Of a stretch of 61,734 bases of DNA, positions 26,219 through 61,734 are shown one piece after another. Source of the stretch: a virus. Its lineage: Duplodnaviria > Caudoviricetes. The stretch covers positions 1 to 61,734 of the IMG/VR virus record IMGVR_UViG_3300008255_002410. The stretch is one strand, 5' to 3'. The notes beneath the pieces were generated by a model. The model did no database searches and had not been told where the DNA came from. It worked only from the letters and a program-made list of their open reading frames with translations. The position numbers and the translations under genes are program-made. Numbering within the stretch: position 1 is the stretch's first letter; each line of letters opens with the position of its first letter.

Positions 26219-26716
26219 ATGCCTACTTCAGATCCATCTGCGTTACCTCTGATCATTCAGCTTATCCAAAACGCAACGCCCAGGACTATCCTTGATGTGG
26301 GTTGTGGTTATGGAAAGCTGGGAGTTCTCGTTAGAGAGTACCTCGAGCCATCATCCTCAGAGGGTAAGCAGCTAAGAACTCTTCGAGTCGATGCTGTGGA
26401 AGTTTTTCAAAACTACTTGGGGCCCTTGCATGCTGCAGTCTACGACAGCGTGTATTTGGGGGATGTGAGAAAGCTCGAGATTCTAGGAGCCTATGACCTG
26501 GTCATCTTGGCAGACGTGATCGAGCATTTTACCAGAGAAGAAGGGCTTCTCCTCTTGAGTCGAGTACAGAAGTATTTGATCACAACTCCTGCCGGCGAGT
26601 ACCCACAGGGAGCTGTCTACGGTAACGAACATGAGAGACATCTCTCTCGGTGGTTTCCGAAAGATTTCAAAACCTCCCAGATCGTTGGCAGCGTCTTAGT
26701 GGGTTGGAACTTCTAG
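26219..26716 (+). CDS. Class I SAM-dependent methyltransferase
   Basis: ILDVGCGYG motif I, DAVE, YDLVILADVIEHF, HE.H.S.W. Confidence 0.88.
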   Translation: MPTSDPSALPLIIQLIQNATPRTILDVGCGYGKLGVLVREYLEPSSSEGKQLRTLRVDAVEVFQNYLGPLHAAVYDSVYLGDVRKLEILGAYDLVILADVIEHFTREEGLLLLSRVQKYLITTPAGEYPQGAVYGNEHERHLSRWFPKDFKTSQIVGSVLVGWNF

Positions 26717-28669: not shown

Positions 28670-29382
28670 AGCAGCTCAGCCTCTTCTCGATTACCCAGGA
28701 AATTGTAAGCTCTGGCAATCATGGGGTGATATAAAGTTGACTCCGCGCCTATATGCTGCACGTAGCTATCTAGCGTGATCAGGTACCCGTCTGTACGTTG
28801 CTTGAAAAGGAGATCATGCAAGTAGAGATCATCGGGTACACCTAATGGGAAGATGCCGCCAAGCTCTTGCAGGAAGCCTTTTCTGAAGATCAAGTTACAG
28901 CCCGTACCATAACGATTTCGAAATACAGGTACTCCACAAGAAGAAAAAATATCGGGTGCTTGCCCCTTATAGAAGTAGTTAAACAGGCTGACTATTTTGA
29001 CTCCAGCCAAGACGTTCACCGGGTCCAGTACGAGTCTGGTTCCCAGGTTAAGCCAGCCCGGAGCGTAGACAACATCATTATCCGCCAGGACTAAGACTTC
29101 TCCGCGAGCAGCATAAATCCCCATGTTGTTTGCATGGGATACGCCTTTCGGTTCATCCGAATTCGTTACCGTTTGAACAAAGATCCCTTGGTCTGGCTGG
29201 TTATGCTTTTGACAAAGCGCGTGAAGCACGCTCTTTGTTTCTTGGTTGCTACCGTCATCACACAGCAGCACCTGTACAGGTGTGTATCGGACTTGCTGAA
29301 GAAGCGACTCTACTGACTTCCAGGTCAGTTTGGGACGGTTGAAAACGGAAACAATGACAGAAACAAGAGGATTCTTTTGCAT
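28654..29382 (-). CDS. GT2 family glycosyltransferase
   Basis: VSVIVSVFNR, CDDGS, G.SHA.N.G, DND (DxD motif). Confidence 0.88.
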   Translation of the reverse strand: MQKNPLVSVIVSVFNRPKLTWKSVESLLQQVRYTPVQVLLCDDGSNQETKSVLHALCQKHNQPDQGIFVQTVTNSDEPKGVSHANNMGIYAARGEVLVLADNDVVYAPGWLNLGTRLVLDPVNVLAGVKIVSLFNYFYKGQAPDIFSSCGVPVFRNRYGTGCNLIFRKGFLQELGGIFPLGVPDDLYLHDLLFKQRTDGYLITLDSYVQHIGAESTLYHPMIARAYNFLGNREEAELLCPGS

Positions 29383-35977: not shown

Positions 35978-36567
35978 ACCTGTCTCCAAAGTGCAGTTAG
36001 ACGTTGTCTTAGTGCTGGATTTTCTTTCAGGTCCCACCAGGCTCGTCGAAGCCAACTTTCTTCAGGGGGATCTTTTTCGAGTATCCTGGAAACTTGATCC
36101 GGGTCCGATAGAATGAAGTATGAAGAAAGTTTCAGCCCAGCCGACTCGTAGACCTCATGCTTTTTCAATCCCAAGTTCAAGTAGGCTTGTAACAGCTTAG
36201 CTGATTGTACAAACGGCATCGTGTACTGTGCTTCAAGAGTGAGCTGATAGTCAGCTTTTCCAGTATGGTACTGCCGGTGTTCAAAGAACCGAGACTGCTG
36301 GTACCTATAGCCCGCCTTAGCCCCAGACAGTTGTTGCGGTGTAGGTAGGCCAAGGGTCAGGAATTGTACTCCAATGAACTGCTCTGGGTCAGCTTCCATC
36401 CTCCGAATGGTTTCAGCCGCTCGAGCAAAGTGATTCCAGGACTTACACGCAGAAGGGTTACCTGGATTCCACCCCATGTATTGTCTTCCAGTTTTTCTCT
36501 CTATGTTCTTAGAGTAGAGCTGGATTATTTGAACAATCTGCTCGTGGATCTCCTTGTCAGAAAACAT
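35767..36567 (-). CDS. Hypothetical protein (possible replication accessory)
   Basis: GGAGG SD and TAATG coupling with the helicase gene; its tail overlaps dnaB by ~211 nt. Confidence 0.65.
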   Translation of the reverse strand: MFSDKEIHEQIVQIIQLYSKNIERKTGRQYMGWNPGNPSACKSWNHFARAAETIRRMEADPEQFIGVQFLTLGLPTPQQLSGAKAGYRYQQSRFFEHRQYHTGKADYQLTLEAQYTMPFVQSAKLLQAYLNLGLKKHEVYESAGLKLSSYFILSDPDQVSRILEKDPPEESWLRRAWWDLKENPALRQRLTALWRQVWTCEERKRSPGAQLTPWNPLPSSVRTRTSSDVTAVESSLSITEVLHSNLSAGPSLTGGKGTKYYRGKIP

Positions 36568-43304: not shown

Positions 43305-46300
43305 TTATTTGGTCCCGTAGTAGTTCATGTCCTTCGGATCCCCCCATGTTTTACAAGCCCTGATATCCACTTTCGTAGGAACTTGCATCCAGGTGGGAGC
43401 GTCTTCCATGATAGTCTTTTGTATCTGGTATACCTGATCCCTTTCTTTTGGGGGGCACTCAGTTCCAATGTCGTCATGCACCAAAAGAATGGGCCTGGCC
43501 TTGAACCCGTGTTTTTCCAGAAAGTTCCAGAGTCTTACTATCGCTTTGAGTGTGATATCTGACGCAGGTCCTTGTACCTCATGATTGAAGCCTTCTCTGA
43601 AGGCTGCGTTTATAAGACTTTGCTTGTTGGACCAAACACCAGGGAACTTTCGAATACGCCCATCTACATTTTGTACGTACCCGTTCTTTCGGATGAACTC
43701 GTGGCATGCCTCGATGTAGTACTTGACCTCAGGATAACGGGCAAAGATCCCCATTACAATCTTTGCTGCTTCTCGATCACTGATTTCCAGAGCAAGTGCC
43801 AATCCGTGAACTGTCTTTCCGTAGATGATGGAAAACAAAGCTGTTTTGGCGCGTTGCCGCATCTCATATGTGACTTTCTCCGGTGGTATACCAAAGATGG
43901 TTGAGGCGGTCATCCTGTGGACATCCCCCTTGCCGGTTATCAGATCAAGAATGAGTTGACGACACTTCGTGATGGACGCCAGTACCCGAAGCTCAATACC
44001 TGCATAGTCAGCATCAACGATGTAACCACCTTCCCAAGATGAGATGAACATCTTCTTGAGGGTGATCCCTTTTCGAAGAGTTCCATCTTTCAATAGAACG
44101 TAATCACACCCAGGTTCATGGAAAATCTCCATGGGCTCACCATGATTTCTGTCATCGTCCTTTCTGGTGAAACCTAGACAAACAAGCTGCTCCTCCCCGA
44201 GCTCTTGTTCGAGACTGGTAAACTCGCTCTTTGTCAGTTCAAAGAAGTAGGGCCTGGAAGGAATGTTCATCAGGTTAGGATCCCTGGAGGCCAACCTTCC
44301 TGTTCTTGGGCCTGCAGCAGTGAAACTGGTATGGACCTTTCCATCCCACTGGATATGCCCGTCTTCTGAATCCAGGAAAGAGTCGACAAAGGTTCCCTTT
44401 GCCGTACCTACCTTGCTCCACTTGAGGAGTAACCTTGGTAGCCCTTTGTGCTTGTGCGCCAGGTTCTCCAAAGCTACGGCGTCTGTCGAGTAATCCTTCC
44501 AGGAGAGCTTGTCCAAGGGGAGAAGCCCACTGGTTATCTTCTTTTGACCTCCTTCAGTCAGTCGGAAACCACCTGTCTCTTCATATTCCTTACCAGAGAG
44601 ACGATAGCCCAACCTTCCGTATAGCAACTCTGCAACTTGAGCCCCGGAATCTGGGTTAAACTCGGGCCAGTCATTGAGTTCTGGCTTCTTCAGGATGTCA
44701 GCTCGTAGTCGGTCCAACTCTTGTTGAAAGTGCCCTTGAGCGTAAGTGAGAAACAACCTGTCAACTTGGACTCCTCGAGCCATCATCTTGGACAGCACTG
44801 AGAAGGCGGGCTCCAAGGTCTCCTCATACACCTGCATTGTTCCCCGCTTCAAAACTGCGGGCGTTTCAAACTTCTCCTCCAGCCAGCGTGTTGCGTGGGC
44901 GTCAACACCATTGTACATGGCCAATCCACCAACAACTTCACAGGTATCTCGAGTTATTGGCGCCGGCTTGATCGGTTTCTTGTGAACGGTTTTCTCTCCG
45001 GTCTTGGTCGTCTCTGTCCACTGACTTGCTCGCACTGCCTTTACCAACAGCTCTTTAATCTTGGCCTGTGCTGCTTCAGTCGCCTGGTTGAAATCTTGAG
45101 TAGCTTTGAATACCTTCCGGAGATAGCGCCTTCCACTTTCAAGTGCCTTCGTCTGAAGGGGTGCCAGGTATTCGCTCAAGTCCTGAGAGTAAGCAACATT
45201 GACTTCCCTTGTCTTTTCTACATCCAGCTCCTGCTGATACACGATAAGCGGAATATCTCCGTACCTACGGTCTTTTTTCTTGAGTCCTCGGAGATACGTC
45301 TCTGAAAGCTCTTTCCAGCCCCGGTAAGGTGTTTTCCAGGAGAGAAGTTCCAGGTTATGTCGAACTGTTTCATCTCTTTGTGCGTCCAGGTGCAGTGTGT
45401 CCAGAACACGTCCAGCCAACTCCACTCCAAGGTGAGACCACAACACCTGATACTCGTAGTAGACGTTGTGCACTACCTTGGTGAGATGCTCGGCACGAGC
45501 AAACTCCCTGATGTATTCGAGGGCCTCTTCCCTCTCTGAAACTGTTAATGGAGACTGCTGATGAAAAAGCGGAACGACAAAGGTTCGGTAGGGTAGATCA
45601 TCAACAGGAGGCCCATAACCTTCTCCCCAGGAGAAGCCACAAGAAAGAACTTGAAAGCCAGGCTTTTCTGGCCGTAGCCCGGTAGCCTCAAAGTCAAAGG
45701 CTACCTTCTTTGGGGTAGCATCCAACATCAAGGCCATCTCCTGCCGGACCTCATCTATTGTCACGCAGATATGGACGTTGTCCGGAAGAACGACTTTTGG
45801 TGCCCCGTTTCTTGAAATCTCCAGAACGGTGTTCAAGTCATCGGCAAATTCGCCTAGACTTTGTGGGTTCTTTTCTCGTAGAAGCTTTGCTGGATGCCAG
45901 GTTGGAACATAGTAAACACCCCTCCGCTCAAACCATTTTCCTCGGTTGTTTGCAACGGAACTACCTTTTCCAATTGATCTAAGCGCTGTAGCTCCAGCTA
46001 GCAAGACAACCTTTGGTCTGGCCGTCTTGATTTCTGCAGCCAGGGCAGGTGAGCAAGCCTTGATAACTGCTTCGTCAGGGGTGTTGTTGTTTGGTGGACG
46101 ACACCTTACCGCATAAGTGTAACGAACCCTGGAGCGGTCGAAACCTACTTTTTCCAAAGCGTTCTCGAGGGCATCCCCGGAATCGCCACAGTTGTGAACT
46201 ACAAATCCGTTGGCAAGGAAAGTTCCAGTCGTTGTCTTGACATCTACAACAAGTTTGGGTCCTGCGGGGTAGATACTTTGTACTTTGGCCTTGGCTCTAA

Positions 46301-47183
46301 CTGTACCCCGAATTTGCATCGGATTTCTTTGGAGTACAGACTCAAAGTCTGAAATGAGTCTTTGGGCTGGGCAAAGTGAGAGGAGTCTAATTGCTTCTTG
46401 TGGTCCCCCCTTAACTCCAACTCTTCCACAAGTGTTGTCTTTGTACCTAGCCTCTTCTCGAACTCTGAGTTCGAAGCCACGCTCCTTGAGTAGAGTCTCT
46501 GCTCGATCAAGTAGGGGACCTAGATTCTGGGAAAAACCGATGTGGCCTCTTGAGTGGATGTTGTCTTTCTTTGACCCAAGAATATGACCCTCCTCGTCAA
46601 GAAAACCAGCAAGCCAACCGGCGTCAAAAGAGGGTTCAATATGTGTAGGAGGGACTAGGTAGATTAGAGAGGATGCTCTCTTTGTGGTGTTCCTTGACTT
46701 GTTCTTTCGCCACAGTGACTGCAACTGATCAAGACGAAGCCACTCGGCCTTTCTTGTTCCTTTGGTAAGAACTCGGTGTTCCGGGGTTCCAGTAAGGTGT
46801 CTCTGCTCTGTGGCTACAGTCCAGCATTGAGCTGCTCGGTGGTGAACTTCTAGTATTTCAGAAATCCTCCACCTTCTGGGTTGGAACTTGCTTGCTCCTG
46901 AAGTACTGGGTCGGCAATGTTCGTCTACTGCAATGAGACGATCTCCGACTTTTGCTTCTCCAAGAGGTTTCCACTTCAAGTCTGCGTAGAGAATTAGAGT
47001 ACTCTCCTCTAGGCAGAACGGTTTTCCCTGGGCATCCTCACGATCTCCAGGAGCTTCTCCGACAACCAAAAGATCCGGTTGGTCCAGAGGACCCCGGCCT
47101 TTCATCTTGGGGGAGTGACAACCAGTATCCCGAAGGGGACACTCGGGACACTTCGCCCAGCTCGCGAATGGGCGAACAATCAT
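43305..47183 (-). CDS. polA: Family A DNA polymerase with N-terminal family-4 UDG-like domain, 3'-5' exonuclease and an intein
   Basis: CxxC, GEAPG..ED, CRPP.N, HPA (UDG); DFEATG, HN..YE, YNGVDA (exonuclease); TGRLAS.DPNL.NIP, ADYAGIELR, R..AK...F..IYG, LVHD (polymerase); GGAGG SD. Confidence 0.93.
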   Translation of the reverse strand: MIVRPFASWAKCPECPLRDTGCHSPKMKGRGPLDQPDLLVVGEAPGDREDAQGKPFCLEESTLILYADLKWKPLGEAKVGDRLIAVDEHCRPSTSGASKFQPRRWRISEILEVHHRAAQCWTVATEQRHLTGTPEHRVLTKGTRKAEWLRLDQLQSLWRKNKSRNTTKRASSLIYLVPPTHIEPSFDAGWLAGFLDEEGHILGSKKDNIHSRGHIGFSQNLGPLLDRAETLLKERGFELRVREEARYKDNTCGRVGVKGGPQEAIRLLSLCPAQRLISDFESVLQRNPMQIRGTVRAKAKVQSIYPAGPKLVVDVKTTTGTFLANGFVVHNCGDSGDALENALEKVGFDRSRVRYTYAVRCRPPNNNTPDEAVIKACSPALAAEIKTARPKVVLLAGATALRSIGKGSSVANNRGKWFERRGVYYVPTWHPAKLLREKNPQSLGEFADDLNTVLEISRNGAPKVVLPDNVHICVTIDEVRQEMALMLDATPKKVAFDFEATGLRPEKPGFQVLSCGFSWGEGYGPPVDDLPYRTFVVPLFHQQSPLTVSEREEALEYIREFARAEHLTKVVHNVYYEYQVLWSHLGVELAGRVLDTLHLDAQRDETVRHNLELLSWKTPYRGWKELSETYLRGLKKKDRRYGDIPLIVYQQELDVEKTREVNVAYSQDLSEYLAPLQTKALESGRRYLRKVFKATQDFNQATEAAQAKIKELLVKAVRASQWTETTKTGEKTVHKKPIKPAPITRDTCEVVGGLAMYNGVDAHATRWLEEKFETPAVLKRGTMQVYEETLEPAFSVLSKMMARGVQVDRLFLTYAQGHFQQELDRLRADILKKPELNDWPEFNPDSGAQVAELLYGRLGYRLSGKEYEETGGFRLTEGGQKKITSGLLPLDKLSWKDYSTDAVALENLAHKHKGLPRLLLKWSKVGTAKGTFVDSFLDSEDGHIQWDGKVHTSFTAAGPRTGRLASRDPNLMNIPSRPYFFELTKSEFTSLEQELGEEQLVCLGFTRKDDDRNHGEPMEIFHEPGCDYVLLKDGTLRKGITLKKMFISSWEGGYIVDADYAGIELRVLASITKCRQLILDLITGKGDVHRMTASTIFGIPPEKVTYEMRQRAKTALFSIIYGKTVHGLALALEISDREAAKIVMGIFARYPEVKYYIEACHEFIRKNGYVQNVDGRIRKFPGVWSNKQSLINAAFREGFNHEVQGPASDITLKAIVRLWNFLEKHGFKARPILLVHDDIGTECPPKERDQVYQIQKTIMEDAPTWMQVPTKVDIRACKTWGDPKDMNYYGTK
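46191..47015 (-). mobile_element. Intein (275 aa) with a LAGLIDADG motif in the UDG domain
   Basis: PF|CLEESTLI ... TPEHRV ... WLAGFLDEEG ... TGTFLANGFVVHN|CG. Confidence 0.92.
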
Positions 47184-47194
47184 TTTCATCCTCC

Positions 47195-51303: not shown

Positions 51304-51517
51304 GATTCCCTCCTTTCCTGATTGCAGCCCTCAGTCGTTGTCAGCCCCTTGTCGACTGATGGTTGCAATCCTTTCCAGTACAAAGATGCCCACTCCCAAC
51401 GTGAAGTAGAGTCCCATGGACCCTCCTCTTGAGAACGGGTGGCCGACATCCTTCTTGTACCTCGAAAAATGCTCCCTAACAGTGTATCCTGGAGAACACG
51501 CTCCTACTCAACTTGAT

Positions 51518-51533
51518 TTGACGCCGGCGTCAA
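51518..51533. repeat. 16-bp palindrome TTGACGCCGGCGTCAA, copy 6
   Basis: Exact match overlapping the AAGGA SD of the RNAP ATG at 51542. Confidence 0.95.
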
Positions 51534-51541
51534 GGAACCAA

Positions 51542-54500
51542 ATGCCAAAAGACGATCCCTCTCAGGAGCCTGCCAAGCTGGTCCAGCATAAGGACATCTT
51601 TCAGCAGATCCAAAAGTCTGTTACTTCTGGCTACGAAAGTCTCTTCCCCATAATAGGAAGAAACCGAGAACTTCGCGCCCATAAGATCTGGGTAGAGGAT
51701 GATAAGGACCCTCACGACTACAAGGGCCAAGAATCCACCAAGCTCAACGGGGGTACCTGGGGTGTTCCCGTCTACGGAGACTTTGAGCTGGTAGACAAGG
51801 GTACAGGGCAGACGGTTGACCGGAAAGAAAGAGTCAAGTTTGCAACCCTGCCAAAACTGACCCCAAGGTACTCCTTTATCGTCAAAGGAAGTGAGTACCA
51901 GGTTTCCCACCAGATGCGGAGAAAACCTGGGGCTTACACCCGCATCGGAACTGATGGCAACATTGAGGCGATGTTTAACTCGAGCATCGGCTCCAACTTC
52001 AAAATGCTCCTTGACAAGGACTCTGGTAAGTTGCACCTGAACGTGGGTTCATCGAATACCAGACTCTATCCCATACTCAAGCACTTGGGCGTGAGTGAAC
52101 AGGAAATGGTCGACCATTTTGGTCCTGAAGTCGTGGAGGTCAACAGGAGAGCTGTAGGTCATCCGGACAACGAGATTCGGGACGTATTAAAGCTCTACAA
52201 GAACCTTCATTTCAACAAGGAGCCTGAAAGCTTTGAGCATGCTGTAGAAGGTTTGAAGACTTACTTTCACGGGAACACGGCCTTTGATCCTGACGTCACC
52301 CACATCAACTTTGGAGAAGCGCACACGAACGCTAACCCGAAGCTTCTCCTGCTTGTGGGCAAGAAGCTGCTCAACATATCAAGAGGCACAGAGGAACCAG
52401 ATGATCAGGAGTCTGTTATTTACAAGACTCTGCATGGAGTAGACGACTTTCTAAGAGAGCGAATCGGTCTTCGGTCCGAGAGACAAAGACTTCACAAGAA
52501 GGTCATGAACACCCTGGATCGAAGAGACTCGATCTCGGACATCATCAACCACCAGATCTTCACTCACCCTGTTGAGAGCCTCTTCACCCAGACCGAGCTT
52601 GCTAATCTGGAAGATCAGACAAACCCACTTTCGATGCTAGGCCGAGCCCACCAGGTAACGATCCATGGTCCTGGCGGAATCTCAGATGAGCACCAGGTCA
52701 GCACTGAAGCTCGAGGTGTTCATCCTTCGCATCTTGGGTTTCTTGACGTTCTTCAGACCCCTGAATCCCATCAAGTCGGGGCCGTCATGAGGCTTCCGCT
52801 CGGATCAGTAAAAGACGGAAATGTCTGGAAGACGGAGCTTGTCAACCACTCTACTGGACAACGGGAGCATCTCACTGCCAAGCAGGCACATGACCACACA
52901 GTGGCTTTTGCTGATGACTTCTACCCAAACAAGGATGGAAGCGTTAGACCAGTTGCTGCCAATGGTCTGGTCAGAGCACTACGTCAAGGGAAGTTCGTTG
53001 AAGTAAGACCTGATGAGGTGGATTACAGAATTCCAACGCCCAGGTCGATGTACGGGCTTTCGTCCAACATGTCCCCGTTCCTGTCCAGCAATTCAGGGAA
53101 GCGGGGAATCATGATGGCCAAGATGGCGGAGCAAGCTTTGCCCCTGGTCAATCGGGAAGTCCCGTTGGTTCAGGTTGTAGCGGGCCCTGGGGGGCAGACT
53201 TACGAGGCCTTGGTTGGCCAAGGATTCACAACCAGAGCACCAACCAATGGGACCGTGATTCATGTCGGAGACGGGGAGATTCATATCCAGTCAGGGGGGA
53301 AGGTTCACAAGGTTCAGTACTACGACAACTTCCCTCTGAACGCGAAGCACTTCTTTCATTCAGAGCCCACGGTAAAGCCTGGTGACGTGGTTCAGAAAGA
53401 TCAATTGCTTGCCGAGCTTTCTCATACGCGAGACGGGGTTCTTTCATTAGGTGTCAATGCACGGGTTGGGTATCTCAACTACAAAGGCGTCAACATTGAA
53501 GACGGTCATGTTGTAAGAGAGGGCTTTGCCAGGGAGCAGTTGAAGTCCTCTCACCTGCACAAGGAAAGCTTTCTAGCAGGGGATAAAACACTTCTGGACG
53601 TGAAGAAGTTTCGTGCCCACCACCCGCTACATCTGACAGAAGAGCAGGCCAGGAAGCTGGATGACAGAGGCATTGTTCGAATCGGAGAGACTGTTCATCC
53701 AGGAGACACCGTCATCGCGGGTATGACCCCCAACGTGCCGAAGGTGGAGGACCAGGTCCTCAAGAACCTACACAGGTCTTTAGTGAAGCCTTGGAGCAAT
53801 GCTGCAGTGACCTGGGACCACCATACCTCAGGCAAGGTCGTCAAGATTGGTCGACATGGAAAGAGAATTGATGTCTACGTGCGGACTGAGGAGCCACTGG
53901 TTGAAGCTGACAAGATTGTAGGTCGTTTTGCGAATAAGGGTGTTGTAGTAAAACTAATCCCAGACCACGAAATGCCACACACCGCTGATGGTCGTCCTCT
54001 TGATGTTCTCTTCAATCCGCACGGCCTTCCATCCCGACTGAACACCGGACAGATCCACGAAACCCTGGCTGGCAAGATTGCTGAGAAGACTGGAAAACCT
54101 TTTTTGGTAGAGAATTTCAAGGCGGGTCTGGACTACAAGAAGTGGATTGACGACGAACTCACCAAACACGGACTTTCAGACACTGAGGAAGTCTTTGACC
54201 CAACAGACGGTAGTTCCCTGGGTCAGATTCTGACGGGTCGTCAGTACATCATGAAGCTGGACCATTCGGTCTCCAAGAAGTTCAATACGAGAGACCGGGC
54301 CGGGTACACGATGGACAGGACTCCGGTTCGTGGATCAGACGAAGGGGCGCAGGCTATCGATCCTCTGACGTTGTATGGGATGCTCTCTCACAATGCTAGA
54401 ACACTGATGTGGGAGCAGGCCGCGTTAAAGTGCTTAGTTGGACACATGAAGGTATGTACCGATCAGGGAGACTTGACCATTAGTAGGATCGTTCGAGGAA

Positions 54501-57500
54501 GACTTCCTGTTAAAGTGCTTTCTATGCAAAAAGACGGCACTTTTGCTTGGAGGAGGGTTGTTGACTATTTCAGGTACCGTACAGACCATGCTACTCGTCG
54601 GGTTGAGGTTACTTCTTCTGAGCTGCTAGACCTTGGGTACTCTACTGGGTACAATGAGGACCGCCATTTGGTTTGTACTCCAGAGCATAAGATCCTTACT
54701 CCCGTGGGAAAGGTCAGATCTGCAGATTTGTTTGTTGGTGACTTGGTTCTAGTTAAAGCAACTACGCCATCACCAACACAAGAAGCAGTCCTGGTAGGTA
54801 CACTACTTGGTGACAGCTCTCTACGTCCAAGATCCCCACTAAGCTATATATCCATCTGTCACGGTGAAGACCAAATCCAGTACCTTTGTTGGAAAATGTC
54901 TTTGCTTTCCGGCCTGTTTGGAGAAAAAGCAATTGGTGTTTCCAAACCTGCGGGGTACGGAGTAAAGAATGGTAAACCTGTGTTCCATGCCAGAAGCATG
55001 TCGCTACCGTGGTTTGCTGAACTAGAAGAGCAGCTTTATTCCTCAGACTCACAGGATATCAAGTGGCTGCCAAAGTATAGAAAGCGAAGAAAGGTAATTA
55101 CCAAAGCCTTCCTAGACCGGTTAGACCTTAGGTCTCTTGCGTTCTTTTATATGGATGATGGGTGCTCCTCTTATAAACGATCAACACTAAGAGGGAAAAC
55201 CAAACGCTGGTATACCAACGACAAGCTTGCAGACGGCTATGTTGAGGTCAGGTTTTGTGTTGGGGAGATAACCCTAAAGGAGATTGACCTTCTTAGAAAA
55301 AGAATGGGGGAGATTATCGGGATTACTCCATCTGCACCAAAGTTCATAAACGGCGTCAGGCTAGCCTACATCGGGTATCGAGGAGCAGCTGCTTTAGAAT
55401 TTCTTTTTGCTGTTGCGCCATATATACATCCTTCAATGTCCTACAAGATGAAGGCAGCTACGCCAAAGGTCCAAGAAGCGCTGCTTTTACTTGTTGGTTC
55501 CAAGATGAAGGAGCTTGAGTCTAAAGCTGAAGTTAGAGCATGCCAAGTCAGACTTACTTCAATTAAGCCGACTACAATTGGTAAACGCACCAGAGATGCC
55601 AAGTTTGTATACGACTTGGAAGTCGAGGAGACACATAACTACGTTTCCCAAGGCCTAATAGTAAGCAACTCAGAGCGGAACGATGACATCTGGAGGGCTA
55701 TTCAGACAGGTTCTCCACTTCCTCCACCGAAGCCGACCTTCGTTTGGGACAAGTTCATGGCGCTGCTTCAAGGCATGGGCCTAGATGTAAAAAGGGAGGG
55801 CTCAAGACTCAAGCTCTTGCCTACTACAGACCAGCAAGTTCTTTCCAGATCAAAAGGTGCCATACGGCTGCCGTTTACACTCCGAGCCAAGGACCTGGCG
55901 CCTATGGAAGGTGGCCTCCTTGACCCGGAGCTAACTGGTGGAATTGGGGGATCGTCCTTCAATCACATCGAGCTTCACCAGCCGTTTCCTAACCCAGTCT
56001 TTGAAAAGCCGATCAAGGCAATTCTCGGGCTTACAGGCCCTCAGTTCGACAGCCTATTGGCTGGTACCTCTTCTGTTGTTGATGGACAGCTCGTGCCGCA
56101 TGCCGGCGGAAAGGTGGCAGGTGAAGGCCTGCAGGAACTGCTTGCCAGGATCGACCCCAAGCTGCACCTGGACCAGACACTGGCTCAAGCAAAAACAGCT
56201 CGAGCCAATGACCTGGACAGGCTTAACAGGAAGGCCAGATACCTGAAGGCTCTGGTTGACAACGACATCCGCCCGGAAGCTGCTTACCTGAATTCAGTCA
56301 TCCCAGTTGTGCCCCCAAAGTTCAGGCCAATCCACCCGATGGCGGATGGCTCTCTCTACACGGCAGATCTCAACTACATCTACAAGAACTTGATGATCGG
56401 GGCAGAACAGCTTGGTGAAGGAAAAGACATCCTTCCGCAGAAGCATCTGGCCCCGCTTCGCCAGGAGATTTACCATCACCTGAAGGGCCTGGCGGGCCTG
56501 GAGCCCCTGGCGTCAGCTCAGGACGGAAGAGAGTACCACGGGATATTAACGGACATCCGTGGCAAAGGAGCCCCGAAGGAGGGAATTTTCCAGTCCAAGC
56601 TCATTGGTAGAAGACAAGACCTCTCTGCTCGCTCCACAATTATCTCTGGCCCAGAACTAGGTCCACACGAAGTTGGCCTTCCCAGAGAGATGCTGAAGAC
56701 CCTCTTCCGGCCATTCATTATCCGAAGACTTTTCGGAATGGGTGTACCCCCTCTTCGAGCCCAAGAGATGATTGATCAGGAAGACCCTGTTGCTGTGAAG
56801 GCCCTGGAACAAGAAGCCAAGGAACGTCCTGTGATTCTTGGAAGAGCGCCTAATCTTCACAAGTTCAGTGAACTGGCTTTTTACCCGGTGCCTGTGGACG
56901 GGCTGGCAATCAAAGTGCATCCGCTAGTTTTACCTGGAATGGGCGCCGATTTTGACGGCGACTCGGCGTCAATTCATGTCCCAGTAACTCCAGCTGGAGT
57001 AGCAGAATCCAAGCGTCTCCTGGCCACACACTCAGACAACCTCAGAAACCCAGGAACCGGAAAGCTCATGATTCTTCCCATGCGGGAGCATGTCCTGGGT
57101 CTGTACCGTCTGACCCTTCCGGGAGAGAAGACCAACCTCTCGTTCTCCAATTTTGGCGAAGCCAGAGAAGCCCTCAAGAAGAAGCAGATTCACTACAACG
57201 ACGTGGTCAACATCGGGGGGCAGAAAACCTCAGTTGGCCGTGCTCTGGTCAACGCGCTTCTTCCAGAAGAACATCGCGATCATAACCGGGTCTTTGATTC
57301 CAGGGGTATCAGAGAGGTTGCTAGCAAGATTGCTAACACACATCCACATGATTTTGGTCGGATCATGAATGACCTGAAGGACCTGGGTGCCAACCATGCC
57401 TACAAGAGTGGAGCTACGATAACCTTCAAGGACCTTGAGCCCTTTCGAAAAGAGCGAGACCAGATCTTGGATGTTGCCAAGAAAAAGGTACGCTTGGCGA

Positions 57501-58936
57501 AGTTTGATGACCGACTGTCTGAAGACCAGAAGGAGCAGGCTACCATTGAGGCTTACACAGAAGCCTCCAAACAAATTGACCGTATGCTGCAGGAGAAGGT
57601 GCCGGCGTCCAACAGCCTGGCCGAGATGGTTCGCTCTGGATCAATTGGTTCATGGCAGCAGCTTCGTCAAGTCCTGGCTGCTCCAGTCCTCATGGAAGGG
57701 ATGGGGGGCAAACCCATCCCGATTCCAGTAACCAAGTCCTACGCTGAGGGACTGTCCTCGGCTGAGTACTTCATCCAGAGCTTCGGTGCCAGGAAGGGTG
57801 CTGTTGACAAGTCCAAGCAGACATCAGTTCCTGGGTACTTCGCCAAGCAGCTGGTCAATTCCATGATCAACCTGGTTGCTGAGGATCACCCATCTGAAGA
57901 TGAAGGTCCTGTCCCAGGAATCAAGCTTGGAATAGACGACCCTGACATCCACGATCGATATCTGGCTCAAGACGTTCGGGATGTAGCTAGTGCTGGAGAA
58001 CTTATAACTCCAGACCTTCTCAGGAGAGCCAGAAACTCTGGGCATCAGGAGCTCGAGGTGCGTTCTCCGCTCACCAGTCTAGCTGCTCATGGTATCTACC
58101 CAAAAGACTACGGGCTGCTTCCGGGCGGGAAACCGATTTCTGCTGGGGATAACGTGGGCGTGATGGTGGCGCAGGCGATGAGTGAACCTGCCACACAAAT
58201 GTCGTTCAAATTAGCGCACGGCGGAGGAGCCGTTGGAGCACAAACCCTTTCCGGTTTCCGAAGAATCGAGCAACTCTTCAACATCAACGAGAACCTACCT
58301 GGGCGAGGGGTCCTTTCTGAAGTTCCTGGTGTTGTTGAGTCCATCACGCCTGCTCCGACAGGTGGCCACGTTGTGGTGATCTCTGGGGTTCCTCATCGAG
58401 TTTCCTCAGGGCTGAACCTGAGCGTTAAGCCAGGGGATACAGTTGAGGTCGGGCAGGCTCTCTCTGATGGTATTACTCACCCCAGAGACCTGCTCCGGTT
58501 GAAGGGACTTAGACCTGCTCAGGACTATCTGGTAAACGAGATTCTCAAGGCTTACCATGAGCAGGGCTTCAAGCTGAAGCGGGTCATCGTTGAAGCCGCG
58601 GTCAGGTCAATGACAAATTTGACGCATATCACAGACCCGGGAGAGGACCCGGACTATGTTCCTGGAGACTATGCACCCATCTCGATGGTGGAGCACAAGA
58701 ACCGCAACGGTGGAACCATCCGGCATACCCCTGTACTCAAGGGCATCCACAGCCTGCCGTTGTATCGAGACGAATGGGTTTCTAACTTGAACTTCGAAAA
58801 CTTGAAGGAAACGATTCTCGAGGCTGCAGCCAAAGGTCGATCCGAGGACATCCATGGTTATAATCCATTGGTGGCTTACGCACATGGGTCTGAGTTCGGA
58901 AGAGTGCCTAAGCACGCAAAGAAAGGTGTTTATTGA
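51542..58936 (+). CDS. Fused beta-beta' DNA-directed RNA polymerase (2464-aa precursor, ~2051 aa after splicing)
   Basis: Beta motifs: FIVKG.E, R.VHPSH.G, TPE, QA.PL, N.ED, DK..GR..NKGVV, NP.G.PSR.N.GQ, YIMKL.H. Beta' motifs: PV.PP..RP, DLN..Y, G.R.D.S.R, RAP.LH, GADFDGD, GARKG..D....T...GY, AQ...EP.TQ. Confidence 0.95.
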   Translation: MPKDDPSQEPAKLVQHKDIFQQIQKSVTSGYESLFPIIGRNRELRAHKIWVEDDKDPHDYKGQESTKLNGGTWGVPVYGDFELVDKGTGQTVDRKERVKFATLPKLTPRYSFIVKGSEYQVSHQMRRKPGAYTRIGTDGNIEAMFNSSIGSNFKMLLDKDSGKLHLNVGSSNTRLYPILKHLGVSEQEMVDHFGPEVVEVNRRAVGHPDNEIRDVLKLYKNLHFNKEPESFEHAVEGLKTYFHGNTAFDPDVTHINFGEAHTNANPKLLLLVGKKLLNISRGTEEPDDQESVIYKTLHGVDDFLRERIGLRSERQRLHKKVMNTLDRRDSISDIINHQIFTHPVESLFTQTELANLEDQTNPLSMLGRAHQVTIHGPGGISDEHQVSTEARGVHPSHLGFLDVLQTPESHQVGAVMRLPLGSVKDGNVWKTELVNHSTGQREHLTAKQAHDHTVAFADDFYPNKDGSVRPVAANGLVRALRQGKFVEVRPDEVDYRIPTPRSMYGLSSNMSPFLSSNSGKRGIMMAKMAEQALPLVNREVPLVQVVAGPGGQTYEALVGQGFTTRAPTNGTVIHVGDGEIHIQSGGKVHKVQYYDNFPLNAKHFFHSEPTVKPGDVVQKDQLLAELSHTRDGVLSLGVNARVGYLNYKGVNIEDGHVVREGFAREQLKSSHLHKESFLAGDKTLLDVKKFRAHHPLHLTEEQARKLDDRGIVRIGETVHPGDTVIAGMTPNVPKVEDQVLKNLHRSLVKPWSNAAVTWDHHTSGKVVKIGRHGKRIDVYVRTEEPLVEADKIVGRFANKGVVVKLIPDHEMPHTADGRPLDVLFNPHGLPSRLNTGQIHETLAGKIAEKTGKPFLVENFKAGLDYKKWIDDELTKHGLSDTEEVFDPTDGSSLGQILTGRQYIMKLDHSVSKKFNTRDRAGYTMDRTPVRGSDEGAQAIDPLTLYGMLSHNARTLMWEQAALKCLVGHMKVCTDQGDLTISRIVRGRLPVKVLSMQKDGTFAWRRVVDYFRYRTDHATRRVEVTSSELLDLGYSTGYNEDRHLVCTPEHKILTPVGKVRSADLFVGDLVLVKATTPSPTQEAVLVGTLLGDSSLRPRSPLSYISICHGEDQIQYLCWKMSLLSGLFGEKAIGVSKPAGYGVKNGKPVFHARSMSLPWFAELEEQLYSSDSQDIKWLPKYRKRRKVITKAFLDRLDLRSLAFFYMDDGCSSYKRSTLRGKTKRWYTNDKLADGYVEVRFCVGEITLKEIDLLRKRMGEIIGITPSAPKFINGVRLAYIGYRGAAALEFLFAVAPYIHPSMSYKMKAATPKVQEALLLLVGSKMKELESKAEVRACQVRLTSIKPTTIGKRTRDAKFVYDLEVEETHNYVSQGLIVSNSERNDDIWRAIQTGSPLPPPKPTFVWDKFMALLQGMGLDVKREGSRLKLLPTTDQQVLSRSKGAIRLPFTLRAKDLAPMEGGLLDPELTGGIGGSSFNHIELHQPFPNPVFEKPIKAILGLTGPQFDSLLAGTSSVVDGQLVPHAGGKVAGEGLQELLARIDPKLHLDQTLAQAKTARANDLDRLNRKARYLKALVDNDIRPEAAYLNSVIPVVPPKFRPIHPMADGSLYTADLNYIYKNLMIGAEQLGEGKDILPQKHLAPLRQEIYHHLKGLAGLEPLASAQDGREYHGILTDIRGKGAPKEGIFQSKLIGRRQDLSARSTIISGPELGPHEVGLPREMLKTLFRPFIIRRLFGMGVPPLRAQEMIDQEDPVAVKALEQEAKERPVILGRAPNLHKFSELAFYPVPVDGLAIKVHPLVLPGMGADFDGDSASIHVPVTPAGVAESKRLLATHSDNLRNPGTGKLMILPMREHVLGLYRLTLPGEKTNLSFSNFGEAREALKKKQIHYNDVVNIGGQKTSVGRALVNALLPEEHRDHNRVFDSRGIREVASKIANTHPHDFGRIMNDLKDLGANHAYKSGATITFKDLEPFRKERDQILDVAKKKVRLAKFDDRLSEDQKEQATIEAYTEASKQIDRMLQEKVPASNSLAEMVRSGSIGSWQQLRQVLAAPVLMEGMGGKPIPIPVTKSYAEGLSSAEYFIQSFGARKGAVDKSKQTSVPGYFAKQLVNSMINLVAEDHPSEDEGPVPGIKLGIDDPDIHDRYLAQDVRDVASAGELITPDLLRRARNSGHQELEVRSPLTSLAAHGIYPKDYGLLPGGKPISAGDNVGVMVAQAMSEPATQMSFKLAHGGGAVGAQTLSGFRRIEQLFNINENLPGRGVLSEVPGVVESITPAPTGGHVVVISGVPHRVSSGLNLSVKPGDTVEVGQALSDGITHPRDLLRLKGLRPAQDYLVNEILKAYHEQGFKLKRVIVEAAVRSMTNLTHITDPGEDPDYVPGDYAPISMVEHKNRNGGTIRHTPVLKGIHSLPLYRDEWVSNLNFENLKETILEAAAKGRSEDIHGYNPLVAYAHGSEFGRVPKHAKKGVY
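54431..55669 (+). mobile_element. Intein (413 aa) with a two-motif LAGLIDADG endonuclease in the RNAP beta C-terminal region
   Basis: ALK|CLVGHMKV ... CTPEHK ... LVGTLLGDSSL ... LAFFYMDDG ... VYDLEVEETHNYVSQGLIVSN|SE. Confidence 0.93.
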
Positions 58937-59622
58937 TGGACAATCTGAGCTGGTTGAAAGTTGCTGATGATGACCCAAGCTTTCGAAGTAGGTTTTCAGG
59001 GAAACTTGCTAACGCTCTGGACGACGTCAAGAGCTACTTGACATCAGGGTCTGGTTTAGCTCCTCTGATGAATTCAGACTTATCTGCGGGGGAGCGTATA
59101 CAAAAGACATTTGCTGACTCGACGGCTGCTGGGAACCTGCTTCGAGATGCTGTGGAACGTAATCTACGTGCACAACCGGGAGCCTCAGGTATCTCGGACT
59201 TCCGTAGAACCCTACTTGGGCTTGCTAATCCTGAAACCATTGCTCAAGAACTGCCGTTTAAGAGTCTTGGGGGGGCTTTTTGGGGAGCACCTCAAGGGAT
59301 GAGAGAATTCAATGACTTGTCAACAAGAAATATTATTGGAAATCTAGGAGCTACTCTTGGCTCGGGTAGCCTTACCACAGCAATTTCTGGTTCTCCTCTT
59401 GCCGGTCTGGCCTCCTCAGCCCTCCCACTTCTGGCAGCTCATCAAGGCTACAATCCAGCAGCAGCAGCTCTCATTGGACCTGCTGCAGCTGGGCTTGTCA
59501 GGCTCCTCACTCCGAAGCCAAAGCCTCGAGAAGACGAGGATGAGTACCAGCGTTGGCGAGAGCGTACTGGAAAGACCTCAAGCTTGAGACAAGACCCGTT
59601 TGCCTGGCTGTTTTCGAGGTAG
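58936..59622 (+). CDS. Hypothetical Gly/Ala-rich, Cys-free protein with hydrophobic helices
   Basis: TGATG coupling to the RNAP gene; glycine-zipper-like segments. Confidence 0.75.
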   Translation: MDNLSWLKVADDDPSFRSRFSGKLANALDDVKSYLTSGSGLAPLMNSDLSAGERIQKTFADSTAAGNLLRDAVERNLRAQPGASGISDFRRTLLGLANPETIAQELPFKSLGGAFWGAPQGMREFNDLSTRNIIGNLGATLGSGSLTTAISGSPLAGLASSALPLLAAHQGYNPAAAALIGPAAAGLVRLLTPKPKPREDEDEYQRWRERTGKTSSLRQDPFAWLFSR

Positions 59623-59625
59623 CTC

Positions 59626-61734
59626 ATGGCGTTCAAGCCAGACGTTGTTCTTCAGGGACATCAGGCCCGTATCGGGCAAAAGGTAGTAGCCAACAAGGGT
59701 ACTGCGCTTCTGGGCTGGGCAATCGGCTCAGGTAAGACTCTCGGATCCCTGGCTGCTCATCATGCACTCAAAGACGCAGGCATGGGAAGCCGGTCTCTGA
59801 TTGTTGTCCCAGCCAAGCTTCGACGTAACTTTGCTGACGACATCAAGAAGTTCACGGACGACAAGTACGTCATCTACGGGAACAAGGAAGAGCAGTCCTC
59901 TGGGCTTTACTCAGGAATTGATGACCCTATTCAGGAAGCAGACCACCACCTGGTCAGCTACGACCTTTTTCGGCAGGACCCCCACAAGTGGATTGAAAGG
60001 GTCAAGCCTGACACTCTGATTTTTGATGAGTTACATCGGGCCAAGAATGAGTATGGCGTGACCCATGAGGCCATTAAGAACGTCCGGCCCAAGGTCAAGA
60101 ACGCCATAGGTTTGTCGGCCTCGTTCGTCGGAAATTCCCCTGCAGATGTGGTCGGAATCCTCAATGCCATAGTCCCGACCGAATCTCCTGGCTGGTTCTT
60201 CCCCAGGAAGCGTGAAGACTTCGAAAGAAAGTTCCTCGAGCCCGTCAAGGGTGGCTTCGAGCTGAAGAACCATGAAGAGCTGGGGCAGCTCCTTTCCAAG
60301 TTCGTGGATTACCATGGGCCAGGAGCCAAGGGCTACGGGCAACGAGGGGTAGTCCCGGAGAAGAGAATCCAGGAAGTCAAGGTTGAGATGTCTCCTCGCC
60401 AGGAACAGCTCATGAGGTATGTCTTTGACCAGCTCCCACCTCTTGTGAAGTGGAAGCTCAAGAAGAACGTAGAAGGACTCTCCGACAAGGAAATCCGACA
60501 CGTCTTTTCCAAGATCACTGCAGCCCGGCAAGTATCGAATTCCATCCACACCCTGGACCCTTCCATCTCACCGATGCAAGCAGCTCGAGAGACACCAAAG
60601 GTCAGGAAGGTCCTGGACGATGTCGAGCAGCATCTGAAAGAGACTCCTGATGGACAGGTACTCCTTGTTAGCCACCTGATTCACGGTGGGGCTGACGTGC
60701 TTCATGCTGGTCTTGAAGACCGTGGCATCTCACATGGGATGTTCCTCGGGGCTGGAAGGCTTGGCCTCAAGGAAGAGGAAGCTCATCAAGCCGTAGCTGA
60801 CTATAACGCCAAAAAGAAGAAAGTGCTGATCATTTCAGACGCCGGAGCCGAGGGGTTGAATCTTCCTGATACTACTTTCATTGGCGTTCTTGACGGACAC
60901 TTCAACCCGGAGCGTATCAACCAAATTGAAGGGCGTGGTATTCGCACTGGAGGTCAGCCTCATCGGCCAGAAAATCAGCGAGAGGTAATGGTTCGCCGGT
61001 ACATGACCTCCACTCCAGGAGGAATCAGGCGGATGCTCTCCAACTTTGCCAAGCGCCTGGTTCCTTTTGGGTTAGCTGGCAGCCCCGATAACACACGAGC
61101 AGTGGACCGCTGGATCTATGACGCAGCAAAGATGAAGGATGCAGCCAACACTAAGGTACGGCAAGCTCTGGCCAAGCTTGGTGAGGAACCACTGCTGAGA
61201 GCCCCAAACGAGGTTACTAAACAGCGTGAGAATGAGGCTGCTCTATATACCATGGAAACGGCCAGAAAGTTTCATGGGCTATCTCGAGACGTGGACGTAA
61301 TTACCGCTGGACTAGCAGGCAAGCCAATCAGTCTTCCAAGTATGCCTGGTTTCTCCATCGGAGGTGGCCTACTTGGAGGAACCCTCCCGATAGCCGAAGC
61401 GGCTGCAGGGGAGGCTGGAGCCTATCTTGGAGACCCGAAGAGTTACTCGGGGAACTTCTTGGAAAATATCAAGAGGCAAACCTCCTGGCCAATGGTTTCA
61501 GGCGGATTAACTGCTGGCCTGATGGGACCAACTCCGTCGGGACTCGCTGCAGGCATCTACCCAAGCTTACGCGAAAACGCACATTGGGCAGAACCCCCGC
61601 TTATTGGGATGGCTGCGAAGCTAACGACATTGTACCCAGCTAAGACCTTACCAACACTTGTTGGTGCTGCCGGCCTTGAGCTAGGCGCCAGATTGTCTCC
61701 TTGGAATCGAGAAAACACTGGATTCTTGGACCAG
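59626..61734 (+). CDS. SNF2/NPH-I-like SF2 ATPase/helicase with Gly-rich C-terminal extension (runs off the window edge)
   Basis: Not in the ORF track because it has no stop in the window. Manual translation: L..HQ, GSGKT, VPA.L, SYD, FDELH, LSAS, SDAGAEGLNL, FNP....Q..GR.IR. Confidence 0.88.
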   Translation, partial: MAFKPDVVLQGHQARIGQKVVANKGTALLGWAIGSGKTLGSLAAHHALKDAGMGSRSLIVVPAKLRRNFADDIKKFTDDKYVIYGNKEEQSSGLYSGIDDPIQEADHHLVSYDLFRQDPHKWIERVKPDTLIFDELHRAKNEYGVTHEAIKNVRPKVKNAIGLSASFVGNSPADVVGILNAIVPTESPGWFFPRKREDFERKFLEPVKGGFELKNHEELGQLLSKFVDYHGPGAKGYGQRGVVPEKRIQEVKVEMSPRQEQLMRYVFDQLPPLVKWKLKKNVEGLSDKEIRHVFSKITAARQVSNSIHTLDPSISPMQAARETPKVRKVLDDVEQHLKETPDGQVLLVSHLIHGGADVLHAGLEDRGISHGMFLGAGRLGLKEEEAHQAVADYNAKKKKVLIISDAGAEGLNLPDTTFIGVLDGHFNPERINQIEGRGIRTGGQPHRPENQREVMVRRYMTSTPGGIRRMLSNFAKRLVPFGLAGSPDNTRAVDRWIYDAAKMKDAANTKVRQALAKLGEEPLLRAPNEVTKQRENEAALYTMETARKFHGLSRDVDVITAGLAGKPISLPSMPGFSIGGGLLGGTLPIAEAAAGEAGAYLGDPKSYSGNFLENIKRQTSWPMVSGGLTAGLMGPTPSGLAAGIYPSLRENAHWAEPPLIGMAAKLTTLYPAKTLPTLVGAAGLELGARLSPWNRENTGFLDQ

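Follow-up and report, generated by a model that had tools for sequence, protein, structure and literature searches.

Why would a giant phage RNA polymerase (RNAP) and the products of two adjacent genes be all but free of cysteine? The question is raised by IMG/VR record IMGVR_UViG_3300008255_002410, a linear virus record of 61,734 bases (hereafter the window, meaning the whole stretch analyzed) whose CheckV completeness of 34% implies a genome of ~180 kb. Its plus-strand end carries an operon for an RNAP, a 228-aa protein and an Snf2-type ATPase, the last of which is cut by the window end. An initial annotation, made by eye, had described the operon as free of cysteine and proposed that it encodes a virion-packaged, ejected transcription machine. 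We find that the count is correct, that it is not a product of chance, and that it represents one local instance of a marked depletion of cysteine, conserved throughout the families of the RNAP, its sigma factor and the Snf2 fusions. As an explanation, we lean towards a packaged, probably injected, bacterial-type transcription apparatus accompanied by a polyvalent Snf2-repair protein.

Cysteine in the operon and in its polymerase family

The operon comprises the following features.

51542..54430, + strand: RNAP extein 1, beta-like (Rpb2 domains 3 and 6), 963 aa, 0 Cys, from Pfam and alignment with E. coli beta
54431..55669, + strand: intein of 413 aa (residues 1006-1418 of the open reading frame) with a LAGLIDADG homing-endonuclease domain, 8 Cys
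55670..58936, + strand: RNAP extein 2, the end of beta and the full beta'-like part, 1088 aa, 0 Cys; TGA stop at 58934-58936
57890..58108, + strand: degenerate beta' zinc site II, with P/E, S, Y and D at the positions of E. coli C814, C888, C895 and C898
58936..59622, + strand: 228-aa Cys-free orphan protein, its ATG overlapping the RNAP stop (TGATG)
59626..61734, + strand: first 703 codons of an Snf2 fusion of ~1660 aa, with an Snf2-type ATPase core in residues 1-520; the gene runs past the window end
~61324-61569, + strand: Gly/Pro-rich, low-confidence linker of the Snf2 fusion, from the structure model

A computational recount gave zero cysteines in each of the mature RNAP, the 228-aa protein and the 703 visible Snf2 codons, as the by-eye reading had it. 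Across these 2982 codons, TGY (TGT or TGC) never occurs in frame, versus 62 and 125 occurrences in the other two frames. The replication block of the window has 106 Cys in 6540 aa (1.62%), and the probability of finding none in 2982 aa is ~7e-22 at that rate and ~6e-15 at the window-mean rate. The intein and the replication proteins had been described as rich in cysteine by comparison, and this too is the case. That the absence reflects chance or a compositional effect has nothing in its favor except the generally modest cysteine content of phage proteins; the out-of-frame TGY counts and the probabilities above argue against it, as does the retention of the pattern in hundreds of homologues (see below), and we regard it as exceedingly improbable.

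The RNAP gene required two corrections before its cysteines could be assigned. The open reading frame at 51416-58936 encodes 2506 aa with nine Cys, at residues 19, 1006, 1014, 1087, 1148, 1158, 1250, 1281 and 1376. The true start, however, is M43 at 51542: the N-termini of 83/83 aligned homologues coincide with it, residue 1 of gp206 of Salmonella phage Arash aligns with residue 1 counted from it, and an AGGA lies 8 nt upstream of its ATG. Cys19 is upstream of this start and thus not in the enzyme. All eight remaining cysteines fall within the intein, so the spliced RNAP of 2051 aa has none. The intein has Cys1, a C-terminal Asn, a +1 Ser and a LAGLIDADG_2 match (E 2e-11), and its boundaries agree with intein-free RNAP homologues; the earlier claim that splicing onto a +1 Ser would leave a Cys-free enzyme is therefore sound. 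The RNAP family is itself an intein hotspot (homologues P0004-P0123), with at least five distinct insertion sites, including ones inside the DFDGD motif and the zinc site, the boundaries being approximate; where junctions are clean, the +1 residue is mostly Ser or Thr.

Pfam finds Rpb2_6 in the RNAP at E 6.5e-50, with Rpb1_5, Rpb1_2 and Rpb2_3 also above their cut-offs and Rpb1_1, Rpb1_3 and Rpb1_4 below them. By BLASTP the protein is collinear with E. coli beta (E 4e-37) and then beta' (E 1e-74), and an intact ADFDGD, which we take to be the catalytic Asp triad motif of NADFDGD type, is encoded at 56945-56962. As judged from sequence, the enzyme is a single-chain fusion of bacterial-type beta and beta' matured by protein splicing, as the initial annotation had proposed for the fusion.

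We asked how far the loss of cysteine extends among its relatives. The protein database holds 513 at E <= 0.001, and the best 120 of these were surveyed; nearly all are ~2030-2080 aa long, or longer with inteins, and they come from contigs of up to ~200 kb. Eighty-three are of intein-free size and 37, the window protein included, bear inteins. Exactly four Cys are present in 70 of the 83 intein-free proteins, and the remainder have five (seven proteins), six (two), seven (one), one (two) or none (one). These Cys fall in four columns of the alignment, in each of which 79-82 of the 84 rows have Cys, and which correspond to E. coli beta' C814/C888/C895/C898. Compared with the seven Cys of E. coli beta and fifteen of beta', the family has therefore lost every cysteine except those of one four-Cys zinc site. 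For the 37 intein-bearing proteins, which could be masked only roughly, four extein Cys were counted in 16, with higher values where masking was incomplete. Homologues thus do not have a normal cysteine content; theirs is reduced to four zinc ligands, and the purge is kept among RNAPs only 36-48% identical.

In the subclade of the window protein, the zinc site has gone as well, leaving P/E, S, Y and D at the ligand positions. P0009 has no Cys, and P0006 and P0007 have one vestigial zinc ligand each. Loss of the site is specific to this subclade and is compatible with membership of the fused-RNAP clade.

In 5/5 near-complete relatives (177-202 kb), a single reading frame encodes the only beta barrel and the only beta' active-site region of the genome, so the lineage lacks the pairing of a virion with a non-virion RNAP. 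A search of the five genomes for a T7-like RNAP (PF00940) matched nothing, and as its control also matched nowhere the result is uninformative. A scan of viral contigs with the RNAP as a single protein found no relative; an alignment-based scan with the helicase did yield loci, and these are used below. Named phages matching at least 80% of the beta part are only Vibrio phages D69, D181 and D148 and Salmonella phage Arash, at ~32% identity.

Virion proteins of phage Arash and a candidate cysteine-free sigma factor

Is the enzyme carried in the virion? Arash (OQ632216, 181 kb) allows the question to be put to a relative, since its virions have been analyzed by mass spectrometry (PMC10585845, Table 2). 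It belongs to the same genome size class and shares with the window phage the RNAP family (31% identity), the Snf2 family (27%) and the sigma family (32%). Two genes with nine others between them encode its RNAP, as gp206 (1525 aa) and gp216 (606 aa), which cover residues 1-1479 and 1486-2040 of the window RNAP; unlike the window enzyme, the Arash RNAP lacks an intein and has the zinc site intact. The Snf2 orthologue, gp217 (E 4e-45), is short, at 472 aa, and comes without repair domains. The Arash proteins are also poor in cysteine, with one in gp206, four in gp216 (the zinc site) and none in gp217 or in the sigma factor gp10. The RNAP gene of Arash directly follows the portal gene.

In Arash virions, gp206 heads the list of detected proteins (128 unique peptides, 3516 spectra), and gp216, gp217, its neighbor gp218 and gp10 are represented by 40, 38, 36 and 24 unique peptides, compared with 32 for the portal, 30 for the major capsid protein and two for the primase and replication helicases (PMC10585845). 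Spectra per residue, a rough measure, are ~2 for gp206, gp216, gp217, gp218 and gp10, which fits comparable molar amounts. Over 109 of the 252 Arash coding sequences, cysteine content falls with detection, from 1.20% in proteins not reported and 1.30% in those with 2-6 peptides to 0.81% at 7-19 and 0.32% at 20 or more. Of the packaged machine that was first proposed, what these data support is its orthologues, which stand among the best-detected virion proteins and are 31% and 27% identical to the window RNAP and Snf2. Packaging in the window phage itself is, by inference from them, well supported.

The gene for Arash gp4 (L085:2528-5821) encodes a Cys-free protein of 1097 aa that is the second most detected in the virion (60 unique peptides). 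It matches no Pfam family and is a candidate for a further ejection or inner-head protein. No homologue of gp4, gp8, gp13, gp14, gp204 or gp218 was detectable in the window or the related loci; among the Arash proteins compared, only gp6 has one.

A candidate sigma factor for the RNAP is encoded just outside the window. Contig L096 overlaps the last 2861 window bases with two mismatches and extends beyond them. At L096:5938-6777 (- strand), ~4.2 kb past the window end and convergent with the Snf2 fusion gene, it encodes a Cys-free protein of 279 aa. This protein is homologous to Arash gp10 (E 1e-21), which in turn matches FliA/WhiG sigma models (E 7e-12). Its own direct matches are below threshold (Sigma70_r3 at 23.9 bits against a cut-off of 25.3; sigma-28 at E 0.0019; best PDB match RpoS at E 0.15), and Pfam Sigma70_r2 gave one sub-threshold match in five records. 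Orthologues of gp10 are nevertheless present in 4/4 near-complete relatives searched, at 229-291 aa and all with no Cys. The RNAP may thus partner a sigma-28-like factor. In L096 the sigma-like gene lies downstream of genes for 189-aa and 852-aa proteins, the former weakly homologous to Arash gp6, so that the order parallels the gp6-gp8-gp10 block of Arash; PHROGs returned nothing for either neighbor. Arash also encodes a second sigma factor, gp196, which has three Cys and was undetected in virions. No sigma of this type was found in the relatives beyond one marginal match in five (E 0.009), and a cascade of two sigma factors is accordingly unsupported outside Arash.

These data bear on a quite different explanation, that the RNAP and the Snf2 fusion are intracellular enzymes of middle or late transcription and of repair, and that the Arash signal is carry-over of abundant proteins. 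Their lack of cysteine would then have another origin, for instance protection from oxidative or thiol-reactive stress in the host, or drift of the lineage after loss of the zinc site. Carry-over is raised by the Arash authors themselves, in a proteome that includes many enzymes (PMC10585845). The operon of the window lies beside replication genes, an RNAP that is the only one in its genome must also work inside the cell, and some undetected Arash proteins are likewise poor in cysteine, such as the ribonucleotide reductase beta subunit (one in 380 aa). Yet the phage's own replication and repair enzymes contain 1.6% Cys, the disparity between 128 unique peptides for the Arash RNAP and two for its primase and replication helicases is large (PMC10585845), and the purge persists across RNAPs of 36-48% identity while sparing only zinc ligands. 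Moreover, it is the sigma factor found in virions that is purged and the undetected one that is not. We consider this explanation unlikely.

The Snf2 fusion and the 228-aa protein

The visible part of the third gene matches SNF2-rel_dom (46 bits) and Helicase_C (39 bits) in Pfam, both above cut-offs. In an AlphaFold (AF2) model from a 29-sequence alignment, residues 1-520 are confident and residues 550-670 have a pLDDT below 50. The Foldseek top 50 for the core feature ISWI, SNF2h, INO80, CHD1, CSB and Mot1, with TM-scores normalized by target of up to 0.83 (SNF2h and INO80), and phmmer against the PDB gave 13 hits, all to ISWI, CHD1L, SsoRad54 and the like. The protein had been called an NPH-I/SNF2-like ATPase. 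Poxviruses package NPH-I with their RNAP, and NPH-I and bacterial RapA resemble the window protein in joining an Snf2-superfamily ATPase core to a link with an RNA polymerase. However, neither is among the 13 PDB hits or the Foldseek top 50, and with 19.9 bits the protein falls far short of the 576 required by the NCBIfam RapA model. The Snf2 half of the label therefore stands, and the NPH-I half was dropped, as there is no specific likeness in sequence or fold; the core is that of a generic Snf2-type translocase of double-stranded DNA.

Contig L096 shows the whole gene (L096:753-5756), which encodes 1667 aa with two Cys, at residues 843 and 1194. The order of its predicted parts is Snf2 core, Gly/Pro-rich linker, four short tandem repeats, 2H (LigT-like) phosphoesterase, LigD-type 3'-phosphoesterase and ATP-dependent ligase with OB domain, of which the phosphoesterases and ligase are encoded beyond the window end. 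Pfam and NCBIfam searches place the 2H domain in the 2_5_RNA_ligase2/LigT family. LigD_N is above its cut-off (41.4 bits versus 31.1), DNA_ligase_A_M (17.6 bits) and OB_2 (26.9 bits) are both below theirs, and NCBIfam LigD models match at E 3e-22 but far below the curated cut-offs; a KxDG-type motif can be seen by eye in the ligase part. No methylase domain was found by Pfam or NCBIfam. The repeat between the linker and the 2H domain is a peptide of ~14 aa in four tandem copies, and a database copy of the fusion (P0247) has 1653 aa, a difference that probably reflects repeat copy number in near-identical strains.

The Snf2 family has been purged as well. Among 120 listed homologues, the 96 that form the close family have 59 Cys in 67,969 aa (0.087%), and 76 of them have none. 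The long fusions (916-2631 aa) contain between none and six Cys, and their domains include GNAT, NlpC/P60-like and pyrophosphatase ones. Two members of the wider family, P0254 and P0255, join Snf2 cores to a GNAT acetyltransferase, an NlpC/P60-like domain and an inorganic pyrophosphatase, with 1-2 Cys in 916-1331 aa. The phosphoesterase-ligase follows the Snf2 part here and precedes it in L011, and in L005, L051, L056 and L062 it is a separate Cys-free neighbor; BLASTP detected it in 6/80 loci, which makes it a feature of a subclade.

This architecture, predicted from domain matches, resembles that of polyvalent proteins such as P1 DarB, which are large multidomain phage proteins combining SWI2/SNF2 ATPases with effector domains, 2H phosphoesterases among them, and which are packaged in the head, injected and act on incoming DNA (Iyer et al. 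2017, PMC5512222). The window fusion differs in lacking the adenine methylase-helicase dyad and in having a LigD-like phosphoesterase-ligase as its partner. In the available text of that paper, 2H domains are described as never seen with RNA ligases and cysteine content is unmentioned (PMC5512222). Given the predicted end-repair domains of the full-length fusion, we judge action on the ends of entering DNA or RNA to be no less likely than service as a transcription factor. Among its possible roles, we would give that of a polyvalent, end-healing early protein about an even chance, and that of a dedicated RNAP cofactor seems possible but doubtful.

The latter role is the basis of another explanation, in which the RNAP is packaged and ejected with the Snf2 ATPase as its bound cofactor, acting like NPH-I or RapA in termination, release or recycling. 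The tight coupling of the three genes, with a TGATG stop/start overlap between the RNAP and 228-aa genes and a gap of 3 nt before the Snf2 gene, speaks for it. We counted gene context in the 54 related loci whose upstream flank spans 9 kb or more; in 31 of them the RNAP lies upstream of Snf2, within 10 kb and in the same orientation. Spectra per residue are similar for gp206, gp216 and gp217 in Arash virions (PMC10585845), and phages of phiKZ type pair Swi2/Snf2 with RNAP genes, a RapA-like role having been proposed (PMC7824862). Against this, the gap is below 1.5 kb in only four of the 31 loci, and most have 6-7 kb of unannotated genes between the two, for which PHROGs returned nothing in the relatives; a distance of 45 kb or more separates the two genes in 2/5 near-complete genomes; and Vibrio phage D69 has the RNAP and no clear orthologue of this Snf2. 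The phiKZ protein gp75 is unrelated to it beyond the Walker A region, and the domains repeatedly fused to the window-type Snf2 are effectors, end-repair ones among them, rather than RNAP-binding modules. Together with the failure to find NPH-I or RapA among the sequence and fold hits, this makes a bound cofactor improbable.

In two loci the large terminase (TerL) gene lies 2-2.5 kb downstream of Snf2 on the same strand (L005:13928-16909 and L046:13668-15386). The L005 terminase gene is interrupted by an intein.

The 228-aa protein has no Pfam or PHROG match, and phmmer found no match to it among the reading frames of the loci. Among 1.8 billion representatives it has one true homologue, also Cys-free, and its Atlas model is poor (pLDDT 0.52). 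A cluster linking it to P22 gp16 (rank 30, score 0.87, 17% of members with the family) was too weak to use. The initial annotation had seen Gly-rich hydrophobic helices in both downstream proteins. Two Gly/Ala-rich stretches do occur in the 228-aa protein (~59344-59514), with Kyte-Doolittle values of 1.33 and 1.44, under the classical 1.6; in the helicase linker no 19-residue window reaches 1.2, its Gly/Pro-rich runs are uncharged, and the model there is below pLDDT 50, so that the helices hold up only in part. Stronger segments (1.6-1.7) are found in relatives: in L046 and L062 they belong to small proteins encoded beside Snf2, and in L005 to the Snf2 tail. Membrane-crossing segments in the operon proteins are thus weakly indicated, and the hydrophobic segments are a lead rather than a finding.

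Lineage, packaged polymerases of other phages and the possible meaning of the purge

The window belongs to an uncultured tailed phage of ~180 kb from a known fused-RNAP lineage, probably mReC. These multimeric-RNAP-encoding Caudovirales were described from 97 contigs (Weinheimer & Aylward 2020, PMC7481178). Like the present phage, they are uncultured Caudovirales from metagenomes and IMG/VR, their beta and beta' align readily with cellular RNAP, and their contigs reach ~200 kb with capsid, terminase and tail genes (PMC7481178). The main text of that paper is confined to phylogeny, and the words virion, helicase, sigma, cysteine and intein do not occur in it (PMC7481178).

Within the window, the operon is divergent from a minus-strand replication block with a DnaB-like helicase, primase, SF2 helicases, a RecA-like protein, a 5'-3' exonuclease and a family A polymerase. 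The last (1294 aa, 43305-47189, - strand) has a UDG-superfamily domain in its N-terminal part, and a second intein interrupts an SF2 helicase (36567-39176, - strand). One further feature separates the block from the operon.

51304..51541, no strand: divergent intergenic region upstream of the RNAP operon, with the AGGA ribosome-binding site shortly upstream of the RNAP start codon (ATG at 51542)

A sigma-70 consensus scan of this region found no promoter-like site, and consensus scans for promoters and terminators gave counts at or below shuffle expectation. The window also encodes an amidase endolysin and giant Kelch-repeat, fiber-like proteins; two of the latter, at 11059-19884 (- strand, 2941 aa) and 21767-24607 (- strand, 946 aa, with a TIG domain), have three Cys each and are presumably fibers or receptor-binding proteins. 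A fusion of glycosyltransferase-9 and methyltransferase (26696-29382, - strand, 657 aa, 16 Cys) adjoins a GT2 glycosyltransferase, and the two may modify DNA or a surface structure.

The closest functional precedent is coliphage N4. Its deposited genome gives a virion RNAP of 3500 aa with no Cys, as the initial annotation had stated, and none in gp51 or gp52, compared with four and eight in the replication proteins gp42 and gp43. Across 191 N4-like phages the virion RNAP has 0.00075% Cys against 0.865% for the proteome, and suppression of cysteine has been described as a conserved feature of their ejection operon, attributed to passage through the disulfide-forming periplasm (PMC11445570). N4 and Pseudomonas phage DEV package and eject, as is proposed here, a giant polymerase along with the ejection proteins encoded next to it, all of them lacking Cys, and the ejected polymerase of DEV has internal putative transmembrane helices that may be compared with the hydrophobic segments above (PMC11445570). 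Unlike the window phage, N4 and its kin are 70-kb podoviruses with a T7-like single-subunit polymerase of unrelated fold, no sigma and no Snf2 partner; in the window RNAP, Pfam shows only multisubunit RNAP domains and no T7-like fold. The resemblance thus appears to be one of function and not of descent.

The jumbo phage phiKZ gives a mixed comparison. Its virion RNAP subunits gp80, gp149, gp178 and gp180 have 16 Cys in 2614 aa, about half the content of the non-virion set, which, going by GenBank product names, we take to be gp68, gp71, gp73, gp74 and gp123 in addition to gp55, and which has 33 in 2850 aa. The depletion thus has the expected direction without being absolute. The identities of the virion subunits and of gp55 follow PMC10612078. 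Like the enzyme proposed here, the phiKZ and AR9 virion RNAP is a two-barrel multisubunit enzyme, packaged at ~10 copies per virion, with a Swi2/Snf2 gene linked to RNAP genes; unlike it, phiKZ has two RNAP sets, each of 4-5 polypeptides, and no sigma (PMC7598289, PMC10612078, PMC7824862). Its Snf2 protein gp75 also differs from that of the window, having 537 aa and seven Cys and lying beside the non-virion RNAP gene gp74.

Several facts weigh against a packaged and ejected machine of the kind we favor. The virion RNAP of phiKZ is only half as rich in cysteine as its non-virion set and not free of it, so freedom from cysteine is neither necessary nor alone sufficient for packaging. Ordinary tail proteins of the window are also poor in cysteine (11 in 6170 aa of the tail/structural block, 0.18%, at which rate a Cys-free operon has a probability of ~5e-3), and low cysteine would therefore mark virion proteins in general and not ejection specifically. 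The purge is incomplete, as the full-length Snf2 fusion carries its two Cys and the nearest RNAP relative (P0005, 76% identical, with D, S, Y and D at the ligand positions) has three Cys dispersed through its exteins, including the +1 residue that follows another intein. The operon abuts a replication module and not a structural block, the RNAP and Snf2 genes lie far apart in two relatives, and D69 has no clear Snf2 orthologue. As for Arash, its identity to the window proteins is low, the correlation of cysteine with detection is weak (Spearman rho -0.27, p = 0.05, n = 52), 116/252 proteins were called structural, including ribonucleotide reductase, ligases and kinases, and carry-over is offered there as an alternative (PMC10585845).

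On balance we still find a packaged, probably injected apparatus somewhat probable, and envisage the following course. The operon proteins would be built into the virion of a tailed phage of ~180 kb and probably delivered to the host with the DNA. The spliced, single-chain RNAP, the only one of its lineage, would probably partner the Cys-free sigma-28-like factor encoded past the window and transcribe early genes without host RNAP. The Snf2 fusion, as a co-packaged polyvalent early protein, would move along the entering genome and heal or seal nucleic-acid ends. Removal of cysteine, including the beta' zinc site, would prevent disulfide cross-links in the extracellular particle and favor unfolding for the tail and crossing of an oxidizing envelope.

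The ingredients of this proposal, namely mReC, the Arash proteome, cysteine suppression in N4-like phages and polyvalent proteins, are already in print. The available part of the Arash paper draws no link to mReC or to cysteine content (PMC10585845). A literature search for a fused beta-beta' virion RNAP with sigma surfaced only reviews and the mReC and Arash papers; among the papers searched we found none linking cysteine content to the fused-RNAP lineage, joining these ingredients, or reporting the loss of the zinc site or the Snf2-LigD fusion.

A bolder version can be formulated, which we hold to be quite unlikely. In it, a full holoenzyme of bacterial type, made of single-chain beta-beta' and a sigma-28-like factor and purged of cysteine and zinc, would be injected with the genome as the sole RNAP of the whole infection cycle, and the Snf2-LigD motor, held at the envelope by Gly-rich segments or the orphan protein, would reel in the DNA and heal or circularize it. 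If so, these phages of ~180 kb would be independent of host RNAP, in the manner of poxviruses.

Three forms of packaged RNAP are known, the T7-like enzyme of N4, the split multisubunit enzyme of phiKZ and the RNAi-like enzyme of crAss-like phages. The apparatus that we favor would add a fourth, a near-cellular beta-beta' with sigma, rebuilt for survival outside the cell and threading through the tail, that gave up a structural zinc site retained by cellular RNAPs. The widespread mReC lineage, so far purely phylogenetic, would acquire a function, and the puzzling proteome of Arash an explanation. The enzyme would also offer biochemistry a natural multisubunit RNAP free of both zinc and cysteine. 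More generally, cysteine counting may serve as a cheap predictor of injected phage proteins, which here flags sigma factors and Snf2 polyvalent proteins.

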